From: a virus
DNA: 47,750 nt
Direction: 5' to 3' (one strand)
Virus genome (UHGV): UHGV-1789659
In this document: positions 2,541 through 38,886 of the stretch, one piece after another
How positions within the stretch are numbered: position 1 is the stretch's first letter
Layout: each line of letters starts with the position of its first letter
Translations under genes and position numbers: made by a program
The notes under the pieces: model-generated
The model's database searches: none
What the model saw: the letters and a program-made list of their open reading frames with translations, nothing else
Told to the model about the DNA's origin: nothing

Positions 2541-3239
2541 GTGGATTGTAGCAATAAAATGGATGTAAAAATCACGATTTTGCAGGTTGATGTTGCCAAC
2601 CTTCGCCCGAATACCTGGAACACCAATTCGGTTGGTGCGCAGAATTTTGAAAAACTGAAAGGTTCTATCGAAAAATTGGGCTTTTTTAAGCCAATTTTGG
2701 CTCGTGAACTTGAAGATGGATTTTTTGAAATCCTCGGCGGCGAACATCGCTGGCGTGCTGCTATTGAGCAAGGAATTTCAACGGTTCCGGTGCTTTCTGT
2801 GGGCAAAATTAGCGATGTCGTAGCTAAACAGATGTCACTAGTGGACAACGAGCGATACGGTGAAGACGACCAAATCGCATTGCAACGCTTCATTGAAGAA
2901 ATTCAGTCAGAACTTGACTATCAACTGTCTGAAATCGCCCCGTATGACGACGAAATCTCGATGGTTTTAGCAAAAGAGGCGGCAATCGACCTTGAAGCAC
3001 TGGAGGCGTTGTCTCGTGGTAGTGATGAGCCTGTCGATACCGACAAACGAGAGAAAACCGAACGTGTGGGTGCGGAACATCAGACCATGCGCTTCAAAGT
3101 AACTTTCGATGCGTCAGATCGTGTTGCAGAAACCATAAAAAACATCATCAAAGAGCAGGCTATTAACACCGGTAATGAAATGGAGAACGCTGGTGAGGCT
3201 CTGGTGTGGCTGGTCGACTACTACAAGGAGCGTATGTAA
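2541..3239 (+). CDS. ParB/sulfiredoxin-like N-terminal domain protein with acidic C-terminus
   Basis: ILGGEHRWRAAIEQGISTVPV matches the ParB N-domain GxxRxxA box; stop overlaps the next start (TAATG). Confidence 0.7.
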   Translation: MDCSNKMDVKITILQVDVANLRPNTWNTNSVGAQNFEKLKGSIEKLGFFKPILARELEDGFFEILGGEHRWRAAIEQGISTVPVLSVGKISDVVAKQMSLVDNERYGEDDQIALQRFIEEIQSELDYQLSEIAPYDDEISMVLAKEAAIDLEALEALSRGSDEPVDTDKREKTERVGAEHQTMRFKVTFDASDRVAETIKNIIKEQAINTGNEMENAGEALVWLVDYYKERM

Positions 3240-3907
3240 TGACCAAAAAGTTTGAAATCGTATATCGCGACCCGGCAGATCTTATTCCCTATGAGATGAA
3301 TGCCAAAAAGCATGATGAACAGCAGATCCGAGATCTGGCCGCAGCCATTAAAAAGCGCGGATTTGACCAGCCAATTACGGTCGATAAGAACGACGTAATT
3401 ATTACTGGCCACGGCCGCCGTGAGGCTGCAATTTTTGCTGGACTTGAGCGCGTACCGGTTATTGTTCGCGATGATCTCAGTGATGACGAGGTTCGTGCGA
3501 AGCGCCTTGAAGATAACCGACTTGCCAGCATTGATTACGATGCAATTAAGCTACAGAAAGAGCTTGAGTCGCTTGTTCTGGACGATATCGAGGTTTTCGG
3601 CTTTGAAGAGCGGGAGTTGAATGTTCTCGTTGGCAGCATGACAGAAGAAATGGACACCGACTCGCTAGTTATCGATCTGGGCGAAGAAACTAAACGACAG
3701 AAGGATGAACACACCGAGATCAGTCGTGAAGTTGCAGCGGAAGAAGTACGTGTTGTCGACGTATTGGGCTTTAAAACGCTCCCTGCTGGCTCTGCCATTG
3801 TTGTTGGTGATTTGCTTGCCCACATGGAAGAAATGACGGGAGAAAGCGGGGTAGACGCATTTGTGGCATATGCGGAGAAGATCTCTTCCGGGGAGATGGC
3901 TGCATGA
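3239..3907 (+). CDS. second ParB-like N-terminal domain protein (start set at ATG 3239 with AAGGAG RBS)
   Basis: ITGHGRREAAIFAGLERVPVIV ParB-type box; acidic C-terminal half; translationally coupled on both sides. Confidence 0.7.
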   Translation: MTKKFEIVYRDPADLIPYEMNAKKHDEQQIRDLAAAIKKRGFDQPITVDKNDVIITGHGRREAAIFAGLERVPVIVRDDLSDDEVRAKRLEDNRLASIDYDAIKLQKELESLVLDDIEVFGFEERELNVLVGSMTEEMDTDSLVIDLGEETKRQKDEHTEISREVAAEEVRVVDVLGFKTLPAGSAIVVGDLLAHMEEMTGESGVDAFVAYAEKISSGEMAA

Positions 3908-5756: not shown

Positions 5757-5811
5757 CCTGCTTCTGTATATATAAATAATAAGTAACTTATTAAATATAT
5801 ACGGAAGCAGG
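5757..5811. repeat. 55-bp near-perfect palindrome (copy 1) with AT-rich core containing AATAAGTAACTTATT
   Basis: Arms CCTGCTTCTGTATAT / ATATACGGAAGCAGG read directly; a second copy lies at 36597-36645. Confidence 0.8.
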
Positions 5812-5875
5812 CTTAGTAAGACATGCCCAGACCTAATTAGACACACCAGAAAACAAGTTGGTTAGCAGATGCAGT

Positions 5876-5890
5876 AAACAAGTTGTTTTA
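5876..5890. promoter_or_regulatory. AAACAAGTTGTTT operator-like inverted repeat upstream of the terminase operon
   Basis: Near-palindrome; a related GAAAACAAGTTGG lies at 5847-5860; similar sites upstream of parA and the dnaB-like gene. Confidence 0.35.
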
Positions 5891-5928
5891 GAGCGCATGG
5901 ACGCGCTCTGTGTGTTTTAGAGGGATCT

Positions 5929-28285: not shown

Positions 28286-31200
28286 ATGTGGTACAGGGAA
28301 GGTACTATCACATTTACACAGGGTAGCAATACTCTGGTTGGTGTTGGAACAGCCTGGAACGTAACAGCTAATGGTGTGTTGCCGGGCATGATCGTCATTG
28401 GTCCCGACAATAAGCTGTATGAGATCAAGCGCGTAACAAGCGATACGAATATTGTTCTCTCAGAACCTTATACCGGCGAAACTCAGTCTGAAGTTCCGTG
28501 CCGAATCATTACGACCTATGAAGGCGACTTAACACAGTTTAGCGCGCGCTTTACTGCGCTAATGTCGCGTATGTCGGCTGATTCCAAGTCCATGCGCAGT
28601 TGGTTGACTGCTCTGGATGAGGTGACAATCGAGCGTGAAGACGGTACAGAAGTGACCGTTAAGCCGCTAATGCAGATCGTCAACGAGCACAACGAAAACG
28701 TTGAGTGGTATAAAAATAACACCGACGCGATAGACGCTGCTGGCGACAAAGCTCGTGAGGCGGCGGCCAGTGCTGCCGCAGCAGCAGAAAGCGCCAATAC
28801 CGCTGGAGAAAAAGCCTCTCAAGCGTCTCAAAGTGCATCCGCTGCGGCTTCCTCACAAAGTGCTGCAAGTGCGAGTGCAACTGCTGCGAAAAAATCTGAA
28901 ACGAACGCAGAAGCCGCAAAAGAAGCGGCAGCAGAATCAGCGTCTGTAGCATCGACCAAAGCATCGGAGGCTGCAACATCTGCGTCCAGTGCCTCTGCAT
29001 CTAAGGATGCAGCCAAAGCATCAGAGACTAACGCTTCATCGAGTGCAAACGCGGCGGCATCATCGGCAACAGAAGCTGCAAATTCGTCTAAGGCAGCAAA
29101 AACGTCAGAGACAAACGCAAAAGCATCTGAAAAGGCAGCCGAACAGAGTGCATCGTCTGCAAACAGTTCGAAATCTGCGGCAGAAGCGTCAGCCAGCGCA
29201 GCCTCAGCAAGTGCGGATAGTGCTTCATCGAGTGCAACTGCGGCAGGAAGAGCTGCGGAAAGCGCGTCTTCATCCGCGACAACAGCTACCACAAAAGCGA
29301 CAGAGGCGACGAGTCAGGCTACAGCTGCTAAAAATTCAGCATCGGCAGCAAAAACCTCTGAAACAAATGCAAAGGCCTCAGAAGACAATGCTGCTTCCTC
29401 TAAGGCGGCAGCTGCTGAATCTGCAAGTTCTGCGTCTGCATCAGCCACCTCGGCATCCGCTTCAAAAGATGAGGCGACCAAGCAGGCATCAGCAGCGAAG
29501 GGTAGTGCTTCAACGGCATCCACAAAGGCAACAGAGGCGGCAGGCAGTGCGACGGCTGCATCTCAGAGCAAAACTGCTGCCGAATCTGCTGCGACTCGTG
29601 CAGAAGCTGCTGCTGATCGTGCTGAAGAGATTGCCGGTGCAGTTGCGATGGAAGACGCAAGCCTTACAACTAAAGGTGTTGTGAAACTTAGTAGTGCGAC
29701 AGATAGCACCAGTGAATCACTGGCTGCAACTCCAAAGGCAGTTAAAGCTGCGAATGACAATGCGAATAGCCGATTGGCGAAGAACCAGAATGGTGCTGAT
29801 ATACCAGGTAAGGATACCTTCACGAAAAATATTGGCGCTGGTCGAGCATTTGGAGGCTCTGTAAGCACAACAGCAGGAAACTGGACTACGGCACAGTTTG
29901 TCGAATGGTTGGACTCTCAAGGGGCCTTTAATCATCCGTACTGGATGTGTAAAGGCTCATGGTCGTATGGCAACAACAAAATCATTACTGATACTGGTTG
30001 TGGCGATATTCATCTTGCCGGGGCAGTAATTGAGGTAATGGGGATAAAGTCCGCAATGACGATCCGCGTTACCACACCAACAACATCTAGCGGTGGTGGT
30101 ACTGCTAACGCTCAATTTACTTATATTAACCACGGGACAGATTATTCTCCAGGCTGGCGACGAGACTACAATACAAAATACAAACCTACGCCATCGGATA
30201 TAGGTGCATTATCAACATCAGGAGGGACGGTTTCAGGTCCGTTGTCTGTTACTGGTGGGTTAACTGGTTCATTGAATGGCAATGCGAGTACCGCCACGAA
30301 ATTGCAGACTGCAAGAACTATCGGCGGCGTGGCCTTCGATGGATCTGCGAACATAAATTTGCCTGGTGTAAACACGGCAGGTAATCAGAGCACCACTGGT
30401 AATGCCGCAACCGCTACAAAACTTCAAACGGCAAGAACGATTGGTGGCGTTTCATTTAACGGAACTGCCAACATCGACTTGCCCGGAGTTAACAAAGCTG
30501 GCAACCAAAGCACCACAGGTAATGCTGCTACAGCTACTAAATTGCAGACAGCAAGAACCATCGGTGGTGTTAGCTTCGATGGCACTGCGAATATTAATTT
30601 GCCTGGTGTTAATGCTGCCGGTAATCAGAACACTACCGGTAACGCGGCTACAGCGACCAAGTTGCAAACTGCGAGAACTATTAACGGGGTGTCGTTTAAC
30701 GGCTCTGCGAATATTTCGATACCAACAATTACGTCCAGAGGACGCGTTACTGCGCTCACAGGCACAACGCAAGGCGCTACTACTGGATTGCAGATGTACG
30801 AGGCATATAACAACGGCTATCCTTCGACTTACGGGAATGTGCTTCATCTTAAGGGGGCAACAGCCGTTGGTGAAGGCGAGTTGTTCATAGGTTGGAGCGG
30901 TACAAGTGGCGCTCATGCACCTGTACATGTACGTTCGCGACGAGATACTGATACAGCCAGTTGGTCAGAGTGGGCGCAAGTTTATACGTCCAAAGACTCA
31001 ATTCCAGGTGTCAATGCCACCGGTAATCAGAACACTACTGGCAATGCAGCATCAGCAACGAAGTTGCAAACTGCCAGAACAATTGGAGGTGTATCGTTTA
31101 ATGGTACCGCCAATATTAACTTGCCGGGCGTCAATATAGCGGGTAATCAGAATACGACTGGTAACGCTGCTTCAGCCACGAAGTTACAAACGGCTCGTAC

Positions 31201-31813
31201 TATTGGTGGTGTTAGTTTTAACGGTACAGCCAATATTAACTTACCTGGTGTGAATACGACCGGTAATCAGAACACTACTGGTAATGCTGCAACCGCCACA
31301 AAATTGCAGACAGCAAGGAAAATTGCTGGTGTGGCGTTTGATGGCTCTGCCGATATAACTTTGACTGCGGCTAACCTTAATGCTTATACGAAAACAGAGG
31401 TAACAAACCTTCTCAGTTCCTATGTGAAGAGTAGTTCTCTTCCAAGCATGACTGTGCGAACTTCCTCTGTTTCTGGTGGGGATATGGGCATGAGTTTGTC
31501 CACATTCATTAGCCACCTTAAATCAAATGGGGCATTTAGCAAAAGTTATTGGATTGGCTTTGGCGATGCTATGGGATTCAATGCTGGCAGTATCAACAAT
31601 ATAACGGGATTTGGTGCTGTAGAATTAGCAGAATCCATAATCGAAGTTTTTAATCTACCGAATGGTGATTATACAATTCGTTTAACGACGTCACACAAAG
31701 CTGACTACGGTGGGATTACAAACGCAATCCTCGTTTATCACTACCGCAGTAATAGAAACCCGACAGGTCAATGGCTTAAATTTGCCGGTACTCTTGGGGC
31801 TACAAACAACTGA
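28286..31813 (+). CDS. side tail fibre protein (Stf-like) with Ala/Ser-rich region and tail-fibre repeats
   Basis: AAKTSETNAKAS-type low-complexity region as in lambda Stf (recalled); eight copies of a roughly 40-aa repeat NQ.TTGNAATATKLQTARTIGGV.F.G.ANI.LPGVN. Confidence 0.8.
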   Translation: MWYREGTITFTQGSNTLVGVGTAWNVTANGVLPGMIVIGPDNKLYEIKRVTSDTNIVLSEPYTGETQSEVPCRIITTYEGDLTQFSARFTALMSRMSADSKSMRSWLTALDEVTIEREDGTEVTVKPLMQIVNEHNENVEWYKNNTDAIDAAGDKAREAAASAAAAAESANTAGEKASQASQSASAAASSQSAASASATAAKKSETNAEAAKEAAAESASVASTKASEAATSASSASASKDAAKASETNASSSANAAASSATEAANSSKAAKTSETNAKASEKAAEQSASSANSSKSAAEASASAASASADSASSSATAAGRAAESASSSATTATTKATEATSQATAAKNSASAAKTSETNAKASEDNAASSKAAAAESASSASASATSASASKDEATKQASAAKGSASTASTKATEAAGSATAASQSKTAAESAATRAEAAADRAEEIAGAVAMEDASLTTKGVVKLSSATDSTSESLAATPKAVKAANDNANSRLAKNQNGADIPGKDTFTKNIGAGRAFGGSVSTTAGNWTTAQFVEWLDSQGAFNHPYWMCKGSWSYGNNKIITDTGCGDIHLAGAVIEVMGIKSAMTIRVTTPTTSSGGGTANAQFTYINHGTDYSPGWRRDYNTKYKPTPSDIGALSTSGGTVSGPLSVTGGLTGSLNGNASTATKLQTARTIGGVAFDGSANINLPGVNTAGNQSTTGNAATATKLQTARTIGGVSFNGTANIDLPGVNKAGNQSTTGNAATATKLQTARTIGGVSFDGTANINLPGVNAAGNQNTTGNAATATKLQTARTINGVSFNGSANISIPTITSRGRVTALTGTTQGATTGLQMYEAYNNGYPSTYGNVLHLKGATAVGEGELFIGWSGTSGAHAPVHVRSRRDTDTASWSEWAQVYTSKDSIPGVNATGNQNTTGNAASATKLQTARTIGGVSFNGTANINLPGVNIAGNQNTTGNAASATKLQTARTIGGVSFNGTANINLPGVNTTGNQNTTGNAATATKLQTARKIAGVAFDGSADITLTAANLNAYTKTEVTNLLSSYVKSSSLPSMTVRTSSVSGGDMGMSLSTFISHLKSNGAFSKSYWIGFGDAMGFNAGSINNITGFGAVELAESIIEVFNLPNGDYTIRLTTSHKADYGGITNAILVYHYRSNRNPTGQWLKFAGTLGATNN

Positions 31814-32353: not shown

Positions 32354-33046
32354 ATGAAGACTCCGAGAGGCATTCGTAATAATAACCCCGGTAATCTTGA
32401 TAAAGGATCACCGTGGCAAGGTCTGGTTGCGAATCCAGACGAACCGCGCTTTTGCACGTTTAAAGACCCTGTTTGGGGGATTCGTGCGCTGGCGGTGACT
32501 CTAATTACCTACCACGACAAACGTCGCGCAAAAGACGGCTCAAGTATCGATACCATTCGTGAAGTTATTGAACGTTGGGCACCGCCGAATGAAAACAACA
32601 CTGACGCCTACATTAATGAGGTGTCTAAAGCCGTTGGTGTAACCGCAGACATGATCATCGATCTGCATGATTACGACATCCTTAGACCTTTGGTTGAGGC
32701 AATCATTCGCCACGAGAATGGTCGAGGTCCACTAAAAACGCTGAACACCTGGTATGCGGCAGAAGTTATTGAGGAAGGTCTGCGTCGAGCTGGCGTCGTT
32801 AAGCCGGTGAAAACCGTGAAGGCTGTTCCTGTAACTAAAGAAACCGCAGGCGCAACTGTCACAGCAGGTATTGGTCTGGCGCAGCTTGCCGATGTTATGC
32901 CGCAGGTTTCCGCTGCTATGGATAAAGCACAAGGTCATATCTCTAGCGGGGATACAGTACGCATCATCTTCGGTATTGCCACTATTGTTGTGGCAGGATT
33001 CATTGCCTGGTCGCAGGTAAGAAAACACCAGAAAGGGATGGTCTAA
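32354..33046 (+). CDS. putative endolysin / cell-wall-active protein with C-terminal TM anchor (function uncertain)
   Basis: 230 aa from ATG 32354 (RBS CAGGAG); position between holin-like and spanin genes; conserved-looking GIRNNNPGNL box; C-terminal hydrophobic helix. No catalytic motif recognised by eye. Confidence 0.35.
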   Translation: MKTPRGIRNNNPGNLDKGSPWQGLVANPDEPRFCTFKDPVWGIRALAVTLITYHDKRRAKDGSSIDTIREVIERWAPPNENNTDAYINEVSKAVGVTADMIIDLHDYDILRPLVEAIIRHENGRGPLKTLNTWYAAEVIEEGLRRAGVVKPVKTVKAVPVTKETAGATVTAGIGLAQLADVMPQVSAAMDKAQGHISSGDTVRIIFGIATIVVAGFIAWSQVRKHQKGMV

Positions 33047-33261
33047 TATGCTAGGCAGCCTGATGATAAAGCTAAAAGTTGCTTTATTCATTGCCTGGTC
33101 GCAGGTAAGAAAACACCAGAAAGGGATGGTCTAATATGCTAGGCAGCCTGATGATAAAGCTAAAAGTTGCTTTATTCATTGCCTGGTCGCAGGTAAGAAA
33201 ACACCAGAAAGGGATGGTCTAATATGCTAGGCAGCCTGATGACAAAGCTAAAAGTTGCTTT
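32998..33261. repeat. 88-bp tandem repeat, three copies (two identical, third slightly diverged) across the endolysin/spanin junction
   Basis: Unit ATTCATTGCCTGGTCGCAGGTAAGAAAACACCAGAAAGGGATGGTCTAATATGCTAGGCAGCCTGATGATAAAGCTAAAAGTTGCTTT repeats at 32998, 33086 and 33174. Confidence 0.9.
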
Positions 33262-33475
33262 GATTACGCTGGCTGCCGTTCTTTTCGTTCTGGTCGGCGC
33301 TTACACGATGGGTGGGAATGCAGCACGACGAGCAATGGAAGAGAAGGCAAAACAGGAAGACAGAAAACGACTTCAAAACACAGTGGAAGTGGTGAATGAG
33401 ACGAGCAATAAAATACGTCAGAAAGATGCTTCTGCCGTTCATCGTGAGTTGTATGATAAGTGGGTGCGTCATTAA
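33224..33475 (+). CDS. i-spanin (Rz-like)
   Basis: N-terminal TM helix (ALITLAAVLFVLVGAYTMGG) followed by a charged segment; an embedded lipoprotein ORF overlaps the 3-prime end. Confidence 0.65.
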   Translation: MLGSLMTKLKVALITLAAVLFVLVGAYTMGGNAARRAMEEKAKQEDRKRLQNTVEVVNETSNKIRQKDASAVHRELYDKWVRH

Positions 33476-33611
33476 ACCACAAACCGCCAGCGTATTGTTC
33501 TGCGATGGAGCTGAGCCTATCTATATCAGCAATAATGATGTGATGACCGAAGAAACCGAACGCCAAATCCTTTTTCACAATACGATGGGAGAGAGAGTTT
33601 GCGGTTGGTGA
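33426..33611 (+). CDS. o-spanin (Rz1-like lipoprotein), overlapping the i-spanin in another frame
   Basis: Signal peptide with lipobox MLLPFIVSCMISG-C; in-frame ATG at 33426 inside the ORF-track ORF 33396..33611. Confidence 0.6.
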   Translation: MLLPFIVSCMISGCVIKPQTASVLFCDGAEPIYISNNDVMTEETERQILFHNTMGERVCGW

Positions 33612-33619
33612 TGCGAAGT

Positions 33620-33637
33620 TCCCCTCACTTGAGGGGA
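33620..33637. terminator. hairpin between convergent spanin and toxin genes
   Basis: CCCCTC-ACTT-GAGGGG stem-loop; flanking T/A runs are weak. Confidence 0.4.
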
Positions 33638-33642
33638 GTACA

Positions 33643-34164
33643 TTATTCTTCGAACAATTTTTCGATAGATTTTGTAGGATAGAACAAAGAACGCTCGTTG
33701 TTACCAACCAGCTGGATAAAGCCTAAACTTTTATAAAACGCCTTGGCTTTGTCATTTAACGCCTCAACGAAAAGTCCATGAATGCCTACAGCAAGAGATG
33801 CATTGTACACAACCCGCATTGCATGTGTTACAAGCATTGAGCCAAATCCTTGACCTTGAAGGGACTTGTCCAAAGCCAGCCTACCCAAAGTAACACTTGG
33901 AACATTCCGATAAGGAACCTTCTTTTGCTGGCTTCTTGAAGGTAAGGACTCCTTTTCAAAGCAGCTGCCTGACAAAGTGTAATACCCTAACACTTTTGGT
34001 CTGTCTTCTTTAGTGCAAAGCACATAAGCGCGAAGAATTTTTCCCTCATGCTGCCTTTTTAAGTGGTTGGTTAAAAAGGCATTTAGTGATTCTTCACCGC
34101 AATCAAAACCATTCAAATCATAATCTTTCTCTCCAGAGAAAATTTCTATCTTTATATTATCCAC
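33643..34164 (-). CDS. GNAT-family acetyltransferase toxin (TacT/KacT/AtaT-type)
   Basis: GNAT motif A QGQGFGSMLV; about 170 aa; immediately downstream of a DUF1778-type antitoxin ORF on the same strand; GTG start. Confidence 0.75.
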   Translation of the reverse strand: MDNIKIEIFSGEKDYDLNGFDCGEESLNAFLTNHLKRQHEGKILRAYVLCTKEDRPKVLGYYTLSGSCFEKESLPSRSQQKKVPYRNVPSVTLGRLALDKSLQGQGFGSMLVTHAMRVVYNASLAVGIHGLFVEALNDKAKAFYKSLGFIQLVGNNERSLFYPTKSIEKLFEE

Positions 34165-34171
34165 GAGTAAA

Positions 34172-34441
34172 CTACTCCATGCTTTTCAGACGATCAGCAG
34201 CTCGTTTCAGCTTGTCGTTCGGTGCCGGAGGATTGCTTATAGCGTCCATAACCAGATTCCAGGATTCTTCATTCAGAACTAGTCTACGGTGTTGCTCTAT
34301 AACTTTCACGGCACGTTCAGATGCACTGCTAACCATAAACTGAGTAATGCTCTGGTTAGACATTGCGGCAGCTTCCTCGATGATGCTTTTATCGTCATCG
34401 GTTAATCTCAAATCGATGCGCTGCTTTTTTAGTGCTGACAT
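34172..34441 (-). CDS. DUF1778-type RHH antitoxin (TacA/KacA-like)
   Basis: Start set at MSALKKQRIDLRLTDDDKSI after an AGGAGG RBS (plus-strand CCTCCT at 34446-34451); the N-terminal RIDLRL plus helical region is typical of DUF1778 antitoxins paired with GNAT toxins. Confidence 0.7.
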   Translation of the reverse strand: MSALKKQRIDLRLTDDDKSIIEEAAAMSNQSITQFMVSSASERAVKVIEQHRRLVLNEESWNLVMDAISNPPAPNDKLKRAADRLKSME

Positions 34442-34710
34442 GTATTCCTCCTGATGGCCGTGATGTAGGAAGGCCATCAATCTCCTCTGTTCAAACTGAG
34501 TTTTCGACTCAAAAATTACTTTAAAAGGCTATAGCCCATTACGTGTGCATTATCAAATTGTGTACGGCATATCACCGTACTTGTAATATAGAGGTCATTG
34601 TTACTTTTTTCAACAGACAAATACAAGCTATGATTGCCAATTGTTAATCACAACCTACCATTTAACCTTTACACCGCAGCCGTAGGCATTTAGGCTATAT
34701 CACATATAAG

Positions 34711-34724
34711 AAAACAAGTTGTTT
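34711..34724. promoter_or_regulatory. AAAACAAGTTGTTT operator-like site upstream of parA
   Basis: Near-palindrome shared with sites at 5876 and 37512. Confidence 0.35.
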
Positions 34725-34759
34725 CAGACGATAATTATATACGCAAAGGGAACTCTCCA

Positions 34760-35428
34760 ATGACCAAGATCTTTGTGGTTGGCGGCACAAAGGGCGGGCC
34801 TGGCAAATCCACCGTTGCCCAGCAAATTGCCGTTTGCCTGAAAGTCAAAAAGAAGAAGAAGGTTTATATCACTGATATAGATATTCAGCGCACGACAACA
34901 AGCTGGTGTGAAGACCGTCGGCAGAACGAAGACCTTGAGCTGATTCCTTTTGCATACGTTCAGGATGACATCATTAAGCACCTAAAATCGCTTCAGGGTA
35001 GAGCTGAGTTTGTCGTGGTAGATGCTGGTGGCTTTGACTCCGAAATTCAGCGACAAGCGATGCTGATGGCCGACGTTATCATTATCCCGCTGCGTCCTAA
35101 GCGTCGTGATTTGAAATCTCTGCGTGACATCGATCCTATTATCGACAATGTTCGTAATGTAAACAATAAAGTGAAGGTCCGCGCTGTCATGAACCAGTGC
35201 CCGGCTTTGCCATCACAAGTGTCTCGCATTCTGGCGGCTAAAGAGATTGTTGAGACGTTTGGCATCGAGTCTGCGCCAGTCAATCTATATAACCGCAACG
35301 TCTATGATGATGCGGAAGAGTCTGGTCGTTCTATCTTTGAAATGACCGGTAGCGAGCGCGACAAAAAGGCGGAAGCCGAGTTTGAAGAATTTGTAGATTA
35401 TCTGTTGAGTCTGGAGGAAGAAGAATAA
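34760..35428 (+). CDS. parA: ParA-family partition ATPase (small, type Ib-like)
   Basis: Deviant Walker A GGTKGGPGKST at the N-terminus; 222 aa; followed by a coupled small DNA-binding protein gene. Confidence 0.85.
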   Translation: MTKIFVVGGTKGGPGKSTVAQQIAVCLKVKKKKKVYITDIDIQRTTTSWCEDRRQNEDLELIPFAYVQDDIIKHLKSLQGRAEFVVVDAGGFDSEIQRQAMLMADVIIIPLRPKRRDLKSLRDIDPIIDNVRNVNNKVKVRAVMNQCPALPSQVSRILAAKEIVETFGIESAPVNLYNRNVYDDAEESGRSIFEMTGSERDKKAEAEFEEFVDYLLSLEEEE

Positions 35429-35787
35429 TGTCCATGAAAATGGGTGACCTAGCAAAGCGCAAAGAGCCTGATGCACCGGCTAAGAACACAACTCCTTTGC
35501 GCCAACCAGTCAGACCACAGGGACGCCCGACTCGTGGCAAAGAGAAAATTAAAAGCCGCACAATGTCACTGGAGGACGAATACTTCGAACTGCTGGAGAT
35601 GATGAAGTTCATCCCTCGCTTCGAGAAATTCACCCGCTCTGATGTGATTCGTGCTGCTATTTTCCATCTTGCGGAGAAGACACCGCAGGAAATCGAGGAC
35701 ATCGTGAAACTTAACGAGGCGATCACAGCTGCCGACGTTACGATGCGTACCGATGAAATTAAACGAGAGTTGATGAAGAAAGGTTGA
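35428..35787 (+). CDS. ParG-like RHH centromere-binding protein
   Basis: 119 aa; basic flexible N-terminus and C-terminal beta-alpha-alpha pattern (RTMSLEDEYFELLE...SDVIRAAIFHLAEK); TAATG coupling to parA. Confidence 0.6.
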   Translation: MSMKMGDLAKRKEPDAPAKNTTPLRQPVRPQGRPTRGKEKIKSRTMSLEDEYFELLEMMKFIPRFEKFTRSDVIRAAIFHLAEKTPQEIEDIVKLNEAITAADVTMRTDEIKRELMKKG

Positions 35788-35788
35788 C

Positions 35789-35818
35789 AAGAGAAGGCGT
35801 GATTAGACGCCTTCTCTT
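35789..35818 (+). terminator. 12-bp-stem hairpin after the partition operon
   Basis: AAGAGAAGGCGT-GATTAG-ACGCCTTCTCTT read directly. Confidence 0.5.
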
Positions 35819-35831
35819 AAAAGGTATATTT

Positions 35832-36572
35832 ATGCTTTACAAATATGTTGGAAGTAGCGTCCCGGAAGACACAATAAATTATTTAAAGTATTACTTAGAA
35901 GATGGGAAAATTCGAGATTTCAACGATCCTGCCGAGTTTAAAGTTAATTTTGATTATGATGCTGATATAGACGCCATTAAGAAAAGATTTTTTGAGCTTT
36001 GGCCTAATCATCACAATGATGAATTTGAACGCTGGTTATTGAGTCAAACAGAACATAGTCGCAGTTTTGATAACTATATGATTAGAACGACTTTTCTGCA
36101 GCGTCGGGGAGTTATTTGTTTGACAAAAAGACCAGATAATTATCTTATGTGGTCGCATTATGCGCATTCTCACTCTGGTTTTTGCATCGGATTTGATGAT
36201 GGTTTTATAAATGCGTTTGATGATGTTTTTTTTGTTCGCGGTGAGGTCAAATATTCCTCTGATGTTCCGGTTGTAAATTTTTTTACCGACTCAGCTAAAG
36301 AGATTGCAGCGGCTCTTTGCCTAAATAAAAGCGATGTCTGGGAATATGAAGAGGAGGTTAGAATCGTAACCGAGAATTGTGGCGTGAAATTATTTGATAA
36401 ATCCTTAATTAAGGAAATAACAATAGGTTGTAAGGCTAGCAGTCAACTTCAAAATTATGTTCATCAACTATTTGATTCAGGTATCGAAATCTACAAAATG
36501 AAGTGCCCTACAGGATCGTATAAGCTGGAAAAAATAAGATTAGAGAAAGATACTGATTTTCTTGGATACTAG
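35832..36572 (+). CDS. AT-rich orphan gene; hypothetical protein (possibly DUF2971-like, unverified)
   Basis: 246 aa from ATG 35832; visibly AT-rich versus neighbours; conserved-looking core LMWSHYAHSHSGFCIGFD...WEYEEEVRIV; bounded by hairpin and palindrome. Confidence 0.5.
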   Translation: MLYKYVGSSVPEDTINYLKYYLEDGKIRDFNDPAEFKVNFDYDADIDAIKKRFFELWPNHHNDEFERWLLSQTEHSRSFDNYMIRTTFLQRRGVICLTKRPDNYLMWSHYAHSHSGFCIGFDDGFINAFDDVFFVRGEVKYSSDVPVVNFFTDSAKEIAAALCLNKSDVWEYEEEVRIVTENCGVKLFDKSLIKEITIGCKASSQLQNYVHQLFDSGIEIYKMKCPTGSYKLEKIRLEKDTDFLGY

Positions 36573-36596
36573 TATTGGTAGTATCAACAATTATGA

Positions 36597-36645
36597 CCTG
36601 CTTCCGTATATAATAAGTATCTTAGTATATATATACGGAAGCAGG
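36597..36645. repeat. 49-bp palindrome (copy 2) with AT-rich AATAAGTATCTTAGTAT core
   Basis: Arms CCTGCTTCCGTATAT / TATACGGAAGCAGG; same family as 5757-5811. Confidence 0.8.
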
Positions 36646-36728
36646 TCTTTTAAAGACACCCACCAGAACAACTCCCTTCTGTTTCCACTTCCAAAAACTG
36701 CCACCAGTCGCTATCATCCGCTCATTGT

Positions 36729-36750
36729 GATAAGTAAGTATCTACCTACC
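36729..36750 (+). promoter_or_regulatory. GATAAGTAAGTATCTACCTACC conserved motif
   Basis: GATAAGTA-family motif directly upstream of the replication-module first gene. Confidence 0.4.
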
Positions 36751-36761
36751 AGGTGAGCCAC

Positions 36762-37502
36762 ATGAGCCAAATCTTTTTCGATACCATCGACAACGACCAG
36801 TACGACTTCATGACAGAGTGGAATACCGCTGCTATGGACAAGTGGGTCGCTGAAAACATTGGTTTGTCGCGCTGTAAAGACGAGGCTGAACTCTTCGAGA
36901 CGAAGTGGTTTGATTACCGCGACATGCATCCTCTTATGGCCACCTGTCTATTTACGGAGGCATACAAACGTCAGTACTCAAATATCATGCTGACGCACGG
37001 TCGTGAACACTTTGAAACAGCTCCGTTCACCACCGGGTTAAAACGCCTGCCTTATCAGGAGTTGTCGACTGCCAATAAAACGTCGCTATGGAAAGCACGC
37101 CAGTTTGCTGATCGCTATTGCTGTTCATACGACTACTTTATCTCCACGGTTCTTTCCGCAGCTGCACGGCGTCTGTGGGACAAGTTGCCGCGCCCACAGC
37201 ATTTATGGCAGCCAGAGCTGATTGAGATATTTGAAGAGAAATTAGCCAGACGCGCAACAACCCGTCTGGATGACTCTCTGGTTAGCTTTAAGCATATGGG
37301 AGACATGCAGTTCAACCCGATTCAGGAAAGCTATTTTGAGTGGATTCTGGAGCGTTTACGCACCATCCCCCGCAGCAAGCGCATACGCGCAATTTTCTCC
37401 GCTATCTGGCTAATGGAAATTGTTCCAGAGCGCCTTATTTCCGCCCACTTTCCAGAAGAACTGGAAGAAGCACGGCGGTTTATTGATCCCCTATCTAATT
37501 AA
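36762..37502 (+). CDS. hypothetical replication-module protein (possible initiator or helicase loader, by position only)
   Basis: 246 aa from ATG 36762 (ORF track opens at GTG 36753); immediately upstream of the DnaB-like helicase. Confidence 0.45.
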   Translation: MSQIFFDTIDNDQYDFMTEWNTAAMDKWVAENIGLSRCKDEAELFETKWFDYRDMHPLMATCLFTEAYKRQYSNIMLTHGREHFETAPFTTGLKRLPYQELSTANKTSLWKARQFADRYCCSYDYFISTVLSAAARRLWDKLPRPQHLWQPELIEIFEEKLARRATTRLDDSLVSFKHMGDMQFNPIQESYFEWILERLRTIPRSKRIRAIFSAIWLMEIVPERLISAHFPEELEEARRFIDPLSN

Positions 37503-37511
37503 CTAATACTA

Positions 37512-37526
37512 GAAAACAATTTGTTT
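37512..37526. promoter_or_regulatory. GAAAACAATTTGTTT operator-like near-palindrome upstream of the helicase gene
   Basis: AACAA-T-TTGTT inverted repeat; same family as the sites at 5876 and 34711. Confidence 0.35.
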
Positions 37527-37545
37527 AAAAAACAAAGGAAAGCAC

Positions 37546-38886
37546 ATGACCGAACTTTGCCATACAGGACGCGGGCTGTCCGAAGAGTTTGATGAAGATT
37601 TCCAGAACAGACTGACGGCATATTTTTGTCGTGATCACGAGTTTCTTACTCGTGCGGGAGATCTGGTTGTGCCTAGCCAATTTGCCAATGCGGCCAATGC
37701 CATATTGGTTAATATGGTTTCGGGCTATTACCGTATGTACAAGAGCGCGCCCTCTTCATCTGCAATTCTGGATATGCTTAAGCGTGCGAAACGCGATAAG
37801 ACTATCCGTGAGGAACTATTCGCCGATGTTGTTGCTGCGTTTAAGCGCATCCTTGCAGAAAAATTGTCCGATACCTCGTACATGGTTGACCAGGTATCAA
37901 CCTTCGCAAAAAGCGTAGCGTTTGATGATGCTCTGATTAAGGCTGCTGAACTGAAAGAGAAGGGCGACTTTCAGGGGGCGATGGCAATCATGGCCAAGGT
38001 TCAGCAGATTGGATCGAACGAAGCGACCGGAATCTATGACTACTACACCTCCGCAAGTGAGCGATTGAAAGCGCGTGAATATGAGGCTTCAGAGGAGTAT
38101 GTACCAAACAGTATTACAACTGGACTCCCTCTTCTCGATAGGTTGCTGTACCAAAAAGGCTGGGCAAAGCGCGAAATGGTGCTCTTCATGGGGTTCGCTA
38201 AATCCGGGAAATCGACCGCAATGGGTGAGTTTTCCATAAACGCAACGCTTGCTGGCTACAATGTTCTGTATCTCTCGCTGGAGGTTCACACCAACATTTT
38301 GTCCGACCGCTTTGATGCAAGATTGTCGGAGACGGAAATGTCCAAGCTGGTGGAACGGCGCGATGAAGTTCATCGTAAGTTGGCAGAGTTGGGAGCCACT
38401 AAGGGGATTGGTAGTTTGTGGGTGGTTGAGCGCCCGTCAGGAAGTATGTCACCGGCAGATCTGGACCGTATGCTTAACAGCATGAAAGCCAATGGCATGG
38501 TGCCTGACATGGTTGTTGTCGACTACGCAGATTTGATGCGTGCCAGTTATGACCTTCGTGATGATCGCGCCAATATTCGTAGTATCTACACCGATTTACG
38601 TGCTCTTTATGACAAACATAACGTTGCTGGGATCACGGCATCGCAGACAAACCGTGAAGGTGGCGCGTCAGAAGTTGCCACAATGATGCACGCTGCCGAC
38701 AACATCGAAAAAGTACGTATTGCTGACCTGGTAATAACGATCAACAAAACCGAAGAAGAAGAAGCGAAAGGAGAGGCTCGTCTCTACTTTGCTGGTTCGC
38801 GTAACCAGCAGGGAGGGATCAGCATTCGCGTTAAACAAAACCTCGAACAAATGCGCTTCATTGAGCGAATCTTAGACGTTACCTAA
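37546..38886 (+). CDS. DnaB-like replicative helicase
   Basis: C-terminal RecA-like domain with Walker A GFAKSGKST, Walker B VVVDYADLM and ITASQTNREG; N-terminal helical domain; about 445 aa. Confidence 0.8.
   Translation: MTELCHTGRGLSEEFDEDFQNRLTAYFCRDHEFLTRAGDLVVPSQFANAANAILVNMVSGYYRMYKSAPSSSAILDMLKRAKRDKTIREELFADVVAAFKRILAEKLSDTSYMVDQVSTFAKSVAFDDALIKAAELKEKGDFQGAMAIMAKVQQIGSNEATGIYDYYTSASERLKAREYEASEEYVPNSITTGLPLLDRLLYQKGWAKREMVLFMGFAKSGKSTAMGEFSINATLAGYNVLYLSLEVHTNILSDRFDARLSETEMSKLVERRDEVHRKLAELGATKGIGSLWVVERPSGSMSPADLDRMLNSMKANGMVPDMVVVDYADLMRASYDLRDDRANIRSIYTDLRALYDKHNVAGITASQTNREGGASEVATMMHAADNIEKVRIADLVITINKTEEEEAKGEARLYFAGSRNQQGGISIRVKQNLEQMRFIERILDVT

Follow-up and report, generated by a model that had tools for sequence, protein, structure and literature searches.

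Type Ib partition loci, including parFGH of TP228, par2 of pB171 with its parC1 and parC2 sites, and delta/omega of pSM19035, each have an array adjoining the operon in which short repeats number from 4 to about 18. Their small ParA proteins have no DNA-binding domain, and where such systems have been characterised it is the partner protein that exerts autoregulation at the promoter. Other systems disperse a single site over the replicon. In P1, the C1 operators are asymmetric 17-mers scattered at replication and other lytic-cycle promoters, with parA not under C1; in RK2, the OB site of KorB is a 13-bp palindrome with about a dozen copies at promoters, KorB being both a partition protein and a global repressor; and in N15, several SopB centromere sites are scattered among phage genes. 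The present analysis concerns the region between an antitoxin gene and a divergent parA gene in a stretch of 47,750 nucleotides (the window) from the virus genome UHGV-1789659, for which a preliminary description had proposed a partition site (parC/parS) together with promoters of both operons. As judged from sequence and comparison, this region is probably made up of two control regions that are unrelated and came to lie back to back through insertion of cargo DNA, one belonging to a toxin-antitoxin cassette and the other to the parA operon, whose leader carries a 13-bp palindrome that recurs at promoters throughout the element.

The segment 33600-35800 shows 97-99% identity to non-mobilizable plasmids of about 110 kb from E. 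coli, E. albertii and Shigella and to the phages Cyrano and CMS-2020a, and 80-86% identity to Salmonella phage SSU5 and Klebsiella phage-plasmids. Because this segment matches both plasmids and phages, the window is, by homology, part of an SSU5/pHCM2-type phage-plasmid, a group that is common in clinical E. coli, Salmonella Typhi, Shigella and Klebsiella and includes members carrying resistance genes. The gene order runs from lysis genes through a GNAT toxin and a TacA/DUF1778 antitoxin, both on the minus strand, to parA and a 119-aa partner on the plus strand, followed by a DUF2971 gene and a DnaB-like helicase. The interval had been given as 280 bp, 34480-34759, and is indeed divergent and intergenic, with a left limit that needs correction. 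The antitoxin starts at the ATG at 34441 (MSALKKQRIDLRL...), behind an AGGAGG and not at the TTG at 34480, in keeping with a full-length KacA match, and the true gap is therefore 34442-34759. The features on which the comparison is built are the following.

33643 to 34164, minus strand: GNAT toxin gene of KacT/AtaT/TacT type (Pfam GNAT domains; AtaT 6gts, E 6e-80; KacT 5zgn_C, E 3e-75).
34172 to 34441, minus strand: antitoxin gene of KacA/AtaR/TacA type, 89 aa, with an N-terminal ribbon-helix-helix (Pfam TacA1, E 6e-26; KacA match).
34562 to 34580, no strand assigned: putative antitoxin operator GTACGG-N7-CCGTAC, with arms and 7-bp spacer length as in the crystallised KacAT operator.
34585 to 34613, minus strand: predicted toxin-antitoxin promoter, with -35 TTGAAA (34613 to 34608), 17 nt, and -10 TATATT (34590 to 34585).
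34654 to 34759, plus strand: conserved parA leader block, at whose left end homology with cassette-free relatives begins and unrelated left flanks adjoin.
34668 to 34696, plus strand: predicted parA promoter, with -35 TTTACA (34668-34673), 17 nt, and -10 TAGGCT (34691-34696), the start site being inferred.
34712 to 34724, no strand assigned: 13-bp palindrome AAACAA-G-TTGTTT; candidate operator, spanning roughly +9 to +21 in the predicted transcript of parA.
34760 to 35428, plus strand: parA, small Walker-type partition ATPase of 222 aa (Pfam MipZ, AAA_31, CbiA; NCBIfam ParA_partition).
35428 to 35787, plus strand: partner gene ('ParG-like'), 119 aa, presumed centromere-binding protein (family alignment; PHROG 5111, function not assigned).

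The left part of the interval shares its design with the KacAT, AtaRT and TacAT systems, having a GNAT toxin gene directly downstream of a DUF1778 ribbon-helix-helix antitoxin gene, and GTACGG/CCGTAC arms around a 7-bp AT-rich spacer placed at the -10/start region of the predicted promoter. The antitoxin matches KacA (PDB 5ZGN, 5zgn_A) over its full length with E 7e-42, residues 5-26 being identical (KKQRIDLRLTDDDKSIIEEAAA), and it keeps R8, D10 and R12, the residues shown in KacA to contact operator bases (PMC6698736). The inverted repeat reported earlier is present as GTACGG-CATATCA-CCGTAC at 34562-34580, in a single copy in the window even with two mismatches allowed. On its own, an inverted repeat of 6+6 within 280 bp would be no rarity, its weight coming from the match to a known operator: the 27-bp duplex crystallised with KacAT, AAATGTACGGTTATTAACCGTACATGA, contains GTACGG-N7-CCGTAC (PMC6698736), and the same arms and spacing stand upstream of E. 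coli O157:H7 ataRT (GTACGGtgacataCCGTAC) and of a homologue on plasmid pGF130-A (GTACGGtatttttCCGTAC). The repeat is carried by 42 of 94 related loci, those being the loci whose sequence extends 400 nt or more upstream of the palindrome; its arms are invariant and its spacer has six variants, as would be expected if two ribbon-helix-helix dimers read the arms. Because its half-sites and spacing equal those of the crystallised KacAT operator and of two other family members, the repeat is read as the toxin-antitoxin operator and not as a partition site or centromere, and on all sequence criteria applied it is a member of the KacAT/AtaRT family.

In a consensus scan, TTGAAA-17-TATATT on the minus strand was the best promoter-like match in the region, agreeing with 10 of 12 consensus positions. 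The operator begins 4 nt downstream of the predicted -10 TATATT, a layout of -10 and operator that pGF130-A also has, and the KacAT operator is reported to span the transcription start (PMC6698736). The left region, 34442 to about 34653, would accordingly be described as the promoter, operator and leader of a kacAT/ataRT-type cassette, in which a sigma-70 promoter would fire toward the antitoxin gene and the antitoxin, in an antitoxin4-toxin2 complex as known for KacAT, would bind GTACGG-N7-CCGTAC at the transcription start and repress its own operon. In a Cyrano lysogen of E. coli LF82, the two genes rank among the element's most strongly expressed, with values of 344 for the toxin and 592 for the antitoxin, silent genes lying at about 6-10 (PMC9928086 S1 Table). 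Unlike the described systems, the cassette has CATATCA as its spacer and a long leader of about 137 nt, which shows no unusual degree of structure (z = -1.16). It also differs in being cargo, carried by a phage-plasmid between its lysis genes and parA.

The limit between the two control regions emerges from the comparison of related elements. SSU5, PhiR41_1 and pJN2-26 are without the toxin-antitoxin cassette, and their homology to the window starts abruptly at about 34654 and is near-perfect up to parA. Flank clustering of 84 related loci sharing the conserved parA leader revealed at least 17 unrelated left flanks adjoining this junction. The toxin-antitoxin type of left flank is found in 42 of the 94 related loci, while 52 do without it and have the same parA, partner gene and leader. 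At the other end, lineages diverge directly after the stop codon of the partner gene, the downstream flank not being conserved. Since left flanks exchange at 34654 and lineages diverge after the partner stop, the partition module is placed by this comparison at 34654-35787, with all DNA to the left of 34654 being exchangeable cargo. The parA module is in this way delimited, and the GTACGG repeat, a false lead in the search for a partition site, is removed from it.

Where the toxin-antitoxin cassette ends on the right, adjoining the parA leader junction, 34631-34650 forms an imperfect palindrome, TGATTGCCAATTGTTAATCA, which may be a binding site or a scar left by recombination.

The several TTGT(A/T/G) direct repeats described earlier were recovered as five copies on the plus strand, at 34558, 34581, 34598, 34641 and 34719, where about 0.9 would be expected per 280 bp; such a density is reached by 0.3% of 280-bp windows (mononucleotide-shuffle p = 0.0016). 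This enrichment, together with the resemblance of three copies (TTGTTA, TTGTTA, TTGTTT) to the palindrome arm, is what speaks for the earlier proposal that the GTACGG repeat, the TTGT repeats and the palindrome jointly form a parC/parS centromere. The proposal is nevertheless very improbable, as the GTACGG repeat matches a KacA-type operator, the TTGT copies are irregularly spaced (23, 17, 43 and 78 bp), four of the five fall in DNA absent from relatives without the cassette, and 34480-34653 as a whole is missing from the 52 related loci that retain parA, partner and leader.

The right region, 34654-34759, is best described as the ancestral parA/partner leader of SSU5-type phage-plasmids, in which a promoter TTTACA-17-TAGGCT would be followed, just past the predicted start site, by the palindrome AAACAAgTTGTTT. 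This is the palindromic site reported before (AAACAAGTTGTTT), present at 34712-34724. The parA promoter is placed at TTTACA/TAGGCT because the hexamers and the 17-nt spacer are retained in divergent lineages, as TTGTCA-17-TAGGCT (L088), TTGACC-17-TACCAT (L092) and TTTACA-17-TAGGCT (L091). Where the partner protein is only 48-64% identical, the elements kept are a -35-like hexamer, the 17-nt spacer with a TAGGCT or TACCAT -10, and CATAAGA-AAACAnnTTGTTT-TCA. Across 80 distinct sequences, 34695-34724 forms the lowest-entropy 30 bp of the whole parA/partner module, being less variable than the Walker-motif codons. Predicted promoter and operator elements of both divergent operons are therefore found in the interval, and the preliminary description is partly supported, its sequence observations being confirmed and its interpretation holding for the promoters. 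In the Cyrano lysogen, parA is expressed at 50 and the partner at 89 (PMC9928086 S1 Table).

The palindrome recurs far beyond parA. In the window, its pattern with at most two mismatches gives 13 matches against 2.6 expected, a count reached by none of 100 shuffles. The complete Cyrano genome holds 18 sites with at most one mismatch (0.2 expected), and the Klebsiella phage-plasmid CP032196, whose parA and partner are 69% and 48% identical at the protein level, holds 21 (0.3 expected). Copies in the window include the following.

5851 to 5888, no strand assigned: two palindrome copies upstream of the small terminase gene terS, 5851-5863 with one mismatch and 5876-5888 exact.
37514 to 37526, no strand assigned: palindrome copy AAACAA-T-TTGTTT, 20 nt upstream of the ATG of the dnaB-like helicase.

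The helicase-upstream position is conserved in all lineages examined. Counted against the Cyrano annotation, 17 of the 18 Cyrano sites lie at most 75 nt upstream of a start codon; among the genes behind the sites are terS, parA, dnaB, nrdB and a TciA-like gene, besides numerous small early ones. In ten cases the site aligns with a -10 (often extended TGnGATAAT) about 13 nt upstream, along with a conserved AAGA junction, while in a second arrangement the palindrome stands just upstream of the promoter, one promoter being bracketed by two copies 51 bp apart. Because of this fixed register with promoters, the distribution marks the palindrome as a putative transcriptional operator of an element-wide regulon. 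It would be bound by a dimeric DNA-binding protein encoded by the phage-plasmid, and the same site at the same position relative to the -10 at about 18-21 promoters would wire parA into this regulon. A conserved palindrome regulon of about 20 sites, including parA, dnaB and the terminase operon, constitutes the most interesting result of the comparison. Literature searches on the palindrome motif and on SSU5-family partition or regulatory sites returned no description in the searchable literature.

The invariance of the site in elements of Escherichia, Salmonella, Klebsiella, Enterobacter and Kluyvera, and its location within the predicted transcribed leader, would also suit a palindrome that is read by a host protein or that forms an RNA element at transcript 5' ends. 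Such a role appears decidedly unlikely, since some copies lie upstream of the promoter and are not transcribed from it, a 6-bp stem with a 1-nt loop cannot form, no enterobacterial regulator with such a consensus is known to us, and no Rfam family matched, the scan of 33500-36000 giving nothing credible.

As to the protein that binds the palindrome, the sequence evidence fits a separate global regulator about as well as it fits the 119-aa partner. A different phage-plasmid regulator, a counterpart of P1 C1, is a substantial possibility, though short of probable; the palindrome would then be its operator, parA one regulated promoter among others, and the centromere elsewhere or too short to be recognised. 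This explanation is favoured by the roughly 18-21 sites per genome at early, replication and packaging promoters in a fixed -10 register, by the many uncharacterised small proteins of the genome, and by transcription in the Cyrano lysogen, where most genes downstream of the sites are silent (terS 7, CYRAN_101 7, dnaB 21) and parA is only moderately expressed (PMC9928086 S1 Table). It is opposed by two negative results, there being no candidate regulator whose conservation matches that of the invariant site and no alternative centromere-like array apart from the repA iterons. The window resembles the P1 C1 system in being a phage-plasmid with many copies of one operator at promoters, but differs from it in having a 13-bp palindrome instead of an asymmetric 17-mer and in carrying the site at the parA promoter.

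Several annotated proteins were considered as binders and rejected. In both lineages, the repeats in the control region of the lysogeny repressor CYRAN_45 itself are of another kind (GGTAAG/CTTAC). Weak evidence against the winged-helix protein beside terS is that a 62-kb E. albertii derivative lacks it and still has nine sites; the annotated 'transcriptional regulator' CYRAN_114 is of the FljA-like RNA-binding type. For the other proteins expressed in the lysogen, PHROGs supplied no function. When relatives having the dnaB palindrome without parA and partner were sought, only truncated contigs turned up. Xenorhabdus relatives and a Raoultella lineage combine degenerate sites with small changes in the predicted DNA-reading strand, a pattern that is suggestive, with data too thin, and was not used.

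The control region of the lysogeny repressor in Cyrano (L005 42600-42800) contains GGTAAGTGCTTACC along with GTAAG/CTTAC copies, and that of Klebsiella CP032196 (L104 5800-5900) contains two copies of TATGTGGTTACTTACT, both being distinct from the palindrome.

Tentatively, the 119-aa partner is put first among single candidates for the binder. In this explanation, which is possible rather than probable, the partner would bind the palindrome as both the parA operator and the partition site, and with about 20 copies it would be a global repressor with a dispersed centromere. The non-coding DNA linked to the module amounts to only 105 bp, in which the palindrome is the sole deeply conserved non-promoter element. 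Partners of ParA-type proteins autoregulate at the promoter in characterised type Ib systems, and omega of pSM19035, KorB of RK2 and the scattered SopB sites of N15 are comparable to a partner acting as global repressor. The predicted DNA-reading strand KSRTMSxEDE and the helix TRSDVIRAAI do not vary even between lineages with only 48% identity in the protein, and this constancy is matched by that of the palindrome. Further support comes from the expression of the partner gene in lysogens, from the other repeats that serve the control region of CYRAN_45, from the remaining annotated regulators examined, which are either poorly conserved between lineages or not DNA binders, and from a distant ParA/partner pair (L107, described below) whose hexamer arrays flank the operon, so that the family sets its sites next to parA. 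Against the partner, known ribbon-helix-helix centromere binders use many subsites whereas parA has two half-sites only, the strict register with -10 elements points first to transcription control, and no protein-site covariation was found, both being nearly invariant.

The partner belongs to a tiny family, represented by 18 cluster representatives in 1.84 billion proteins (full HMMER search), whose alignment displays an invariant N-terminal MGDLAK, a basic tract, a KSRTMSxEDE strand and a TRSDVIRAAI helix. The segment comprising the strand RTMSLEDEY, a helix and TRSDVIRAAI resembles a CopG-type ribbon-helix-helix motif in sequence, and two distant family members give weak, sub-threshold RHH_1 matches over it (E 0.11 and 0.3). 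A weak aCcr1 match was obtained as well. The partner has no Pfam match, no ParB domain, no PDB match in sequence searches and no fold match; its AlphaFold monomer shows helices only, with a pLDDT of 63, and hhalign against the KacA-like antitoxin was negative. That the partner is a ribbon-helix-helix protein acting on all of the roughly 20 palindromes, a type Ib partition protein doubling as an element-wide repressor, is somewhat doubtful. Many copies of one site over the replicon are likewise found with RK2 KorB and N15 SopB, the KorB site also being a 13-bp palindrome, but those are ParB-family helix-turn-helix proteins, whereas the partner in the window is without a ParB domain. If the partner does bind all copies, partition would proceed by dispersed single palindromes, with plasmid segregation coupled to control of the lytic programme, and replication, early and packaging promoters would be under a type Ib partition protein.

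The gene of Cyrano corresponding to window 35428-35787, CYRAN_29 in OV696614, is annotated as 'RelE/ParE putative toxin' and was counted as a toxin in the LF82 paper (PMC9928086). The label looks like a misannotation, Pfam and PHROG giving it no support.

The partition genes fit the type Ib pattern in several respects. ParA has its P-loop at residues 9-17 and is without an N-terminal DNA-binding domain, its closest solved structures being ParF 4dzz and ParA 5u1g of TP228. As in type Ib loci, downstream of a small Walker ParA there is a small partner whose N-terminus is basic and flexible and which has a ribbon-helix-helix-like motif, and the candidate site overlaps the operon's own promoter. 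The window departs from these loci in having one 13-bp palindrome and no array, and a partner from a tiny family without a Pfam model. No tandem or iteron-like array of the type Ib kind was found in 33000-38000, including the DNA beside parA and the partner gene, and no local cluster of half-sites was found at parA, where the two arms of the palindrome are the only half-sites. The coding sequences of the module contain no conserved island beyond the Walker motifs, and in the Cyrano segment scanned (L006, 50001-100000) the only arrays adjoin repA, as iterons. The parC/parS site suggested for the interval is for these reasons not demonstrable: a dedicated or conventional repeat-array partition site is not visible there by sequence, and the palindrome is one of about 18-21 dispersed copies. 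Any cis site travelling with the module must lie in 34654-34759, where the palindrome is the only candidate. The proposal of a partition site in the interval is thus tenable only on condition that the partner binds this dispersed palindrome.

A conventional layout does occur in a distant relative. Beside the distant ParA/partner pair on the soil/metagenome contig L107, GCTTRC hexamers with a 9-bp period stand on both sides of the operon, three just upstream (1979-2002) and seven within 130 bp just downstream (3001-3133), which in sequence is a textbook two-sided type Ib centromere layout.

Several points weigh against reading the interval as a toxin-antitoxin control region joined to a parA leader whose palindrome is simply an operator. 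The TTGT enrichment is left unexplained, with most copies sitting in dispensable cassette DNA. The TAGGCT -10 agrees with only 3 of 6 consensus positions, below the threshold of the consensus scan, and TATATC and TATAAG nearby are alternative -10 candidates. From its position at about +9 to +21, the palindrome could in principle act at the RNA level. The ribbon-helix-helix fold of the partner could not be confirmed, which also counts against the partner as binder; if the partner is the binder, however, the palindrome would double as a partition site of a minimal, dispersed kind, and 'operator' would understate what is then the centromere of the preliminary description. The identity of the palindrome-binding protein would decide between a centromere and a new master regulator, and is relevant to plasmid curing and to the prediction of incompatibility.

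A canonical LexA box (CTGTATGTGTATACAG) is located in Cyrano at about 39275-39294 of L006 (Cyrano 89275), just upstream of the stand-alone S24-peptidase gene CYRAN_98. Ciprofloxacin (SOS) induction has been reported for Cyrano (PMC9928086), and the box is a likely point of entry for it.

Directly after the partner stop codon, at 35789-35818, there is a perfect inverted repeat with 12-nt arms, AAGAGAAGGCGT-N6-ACGCCTTCTCTT, with no T-run, which among 11 loci compared is found in the window and Cyrano only. On the other side of the cassette, an 88-bp unit spanning the endolysin 3' end to the Rz spanin 5' start is present at 33000-33263 in three tandem copies that are 97-100% identical. The unit occurs as one copy in 45 related loci and as three in the window only, the triplication being either a recent event or an assembly artefact.

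At 2541-3907 of the window lie two adjacent genes whose products contain only a ParB N-terminal (ParB/Srx, ParB_N) domain, none for DNA binding being recognised. ATPase genes come next, and then the gene of a small winged-helix-like protein shortly before terS. Downstream of the two palindromes near terS, and ahead of its start codon, 5889-5917 comprises a GC-rich terminator-like hairpin (5889-5910) and a T-run, which suggests a packaging/structural operon under antitermination control. A perfect hairpin with 18-nt arms (GACCTGCTTCCGTATATA ... TATATACGGAAGCAGGTC) recurs between operons, at 36595-36647 and 5757-5810 in the window and at 31160-31213 in Cyrano. One copy comes after the DUF2971 gene, another immediately precedes the terS promoter, and the recurring hairpin is probably a shared terminator-like element.

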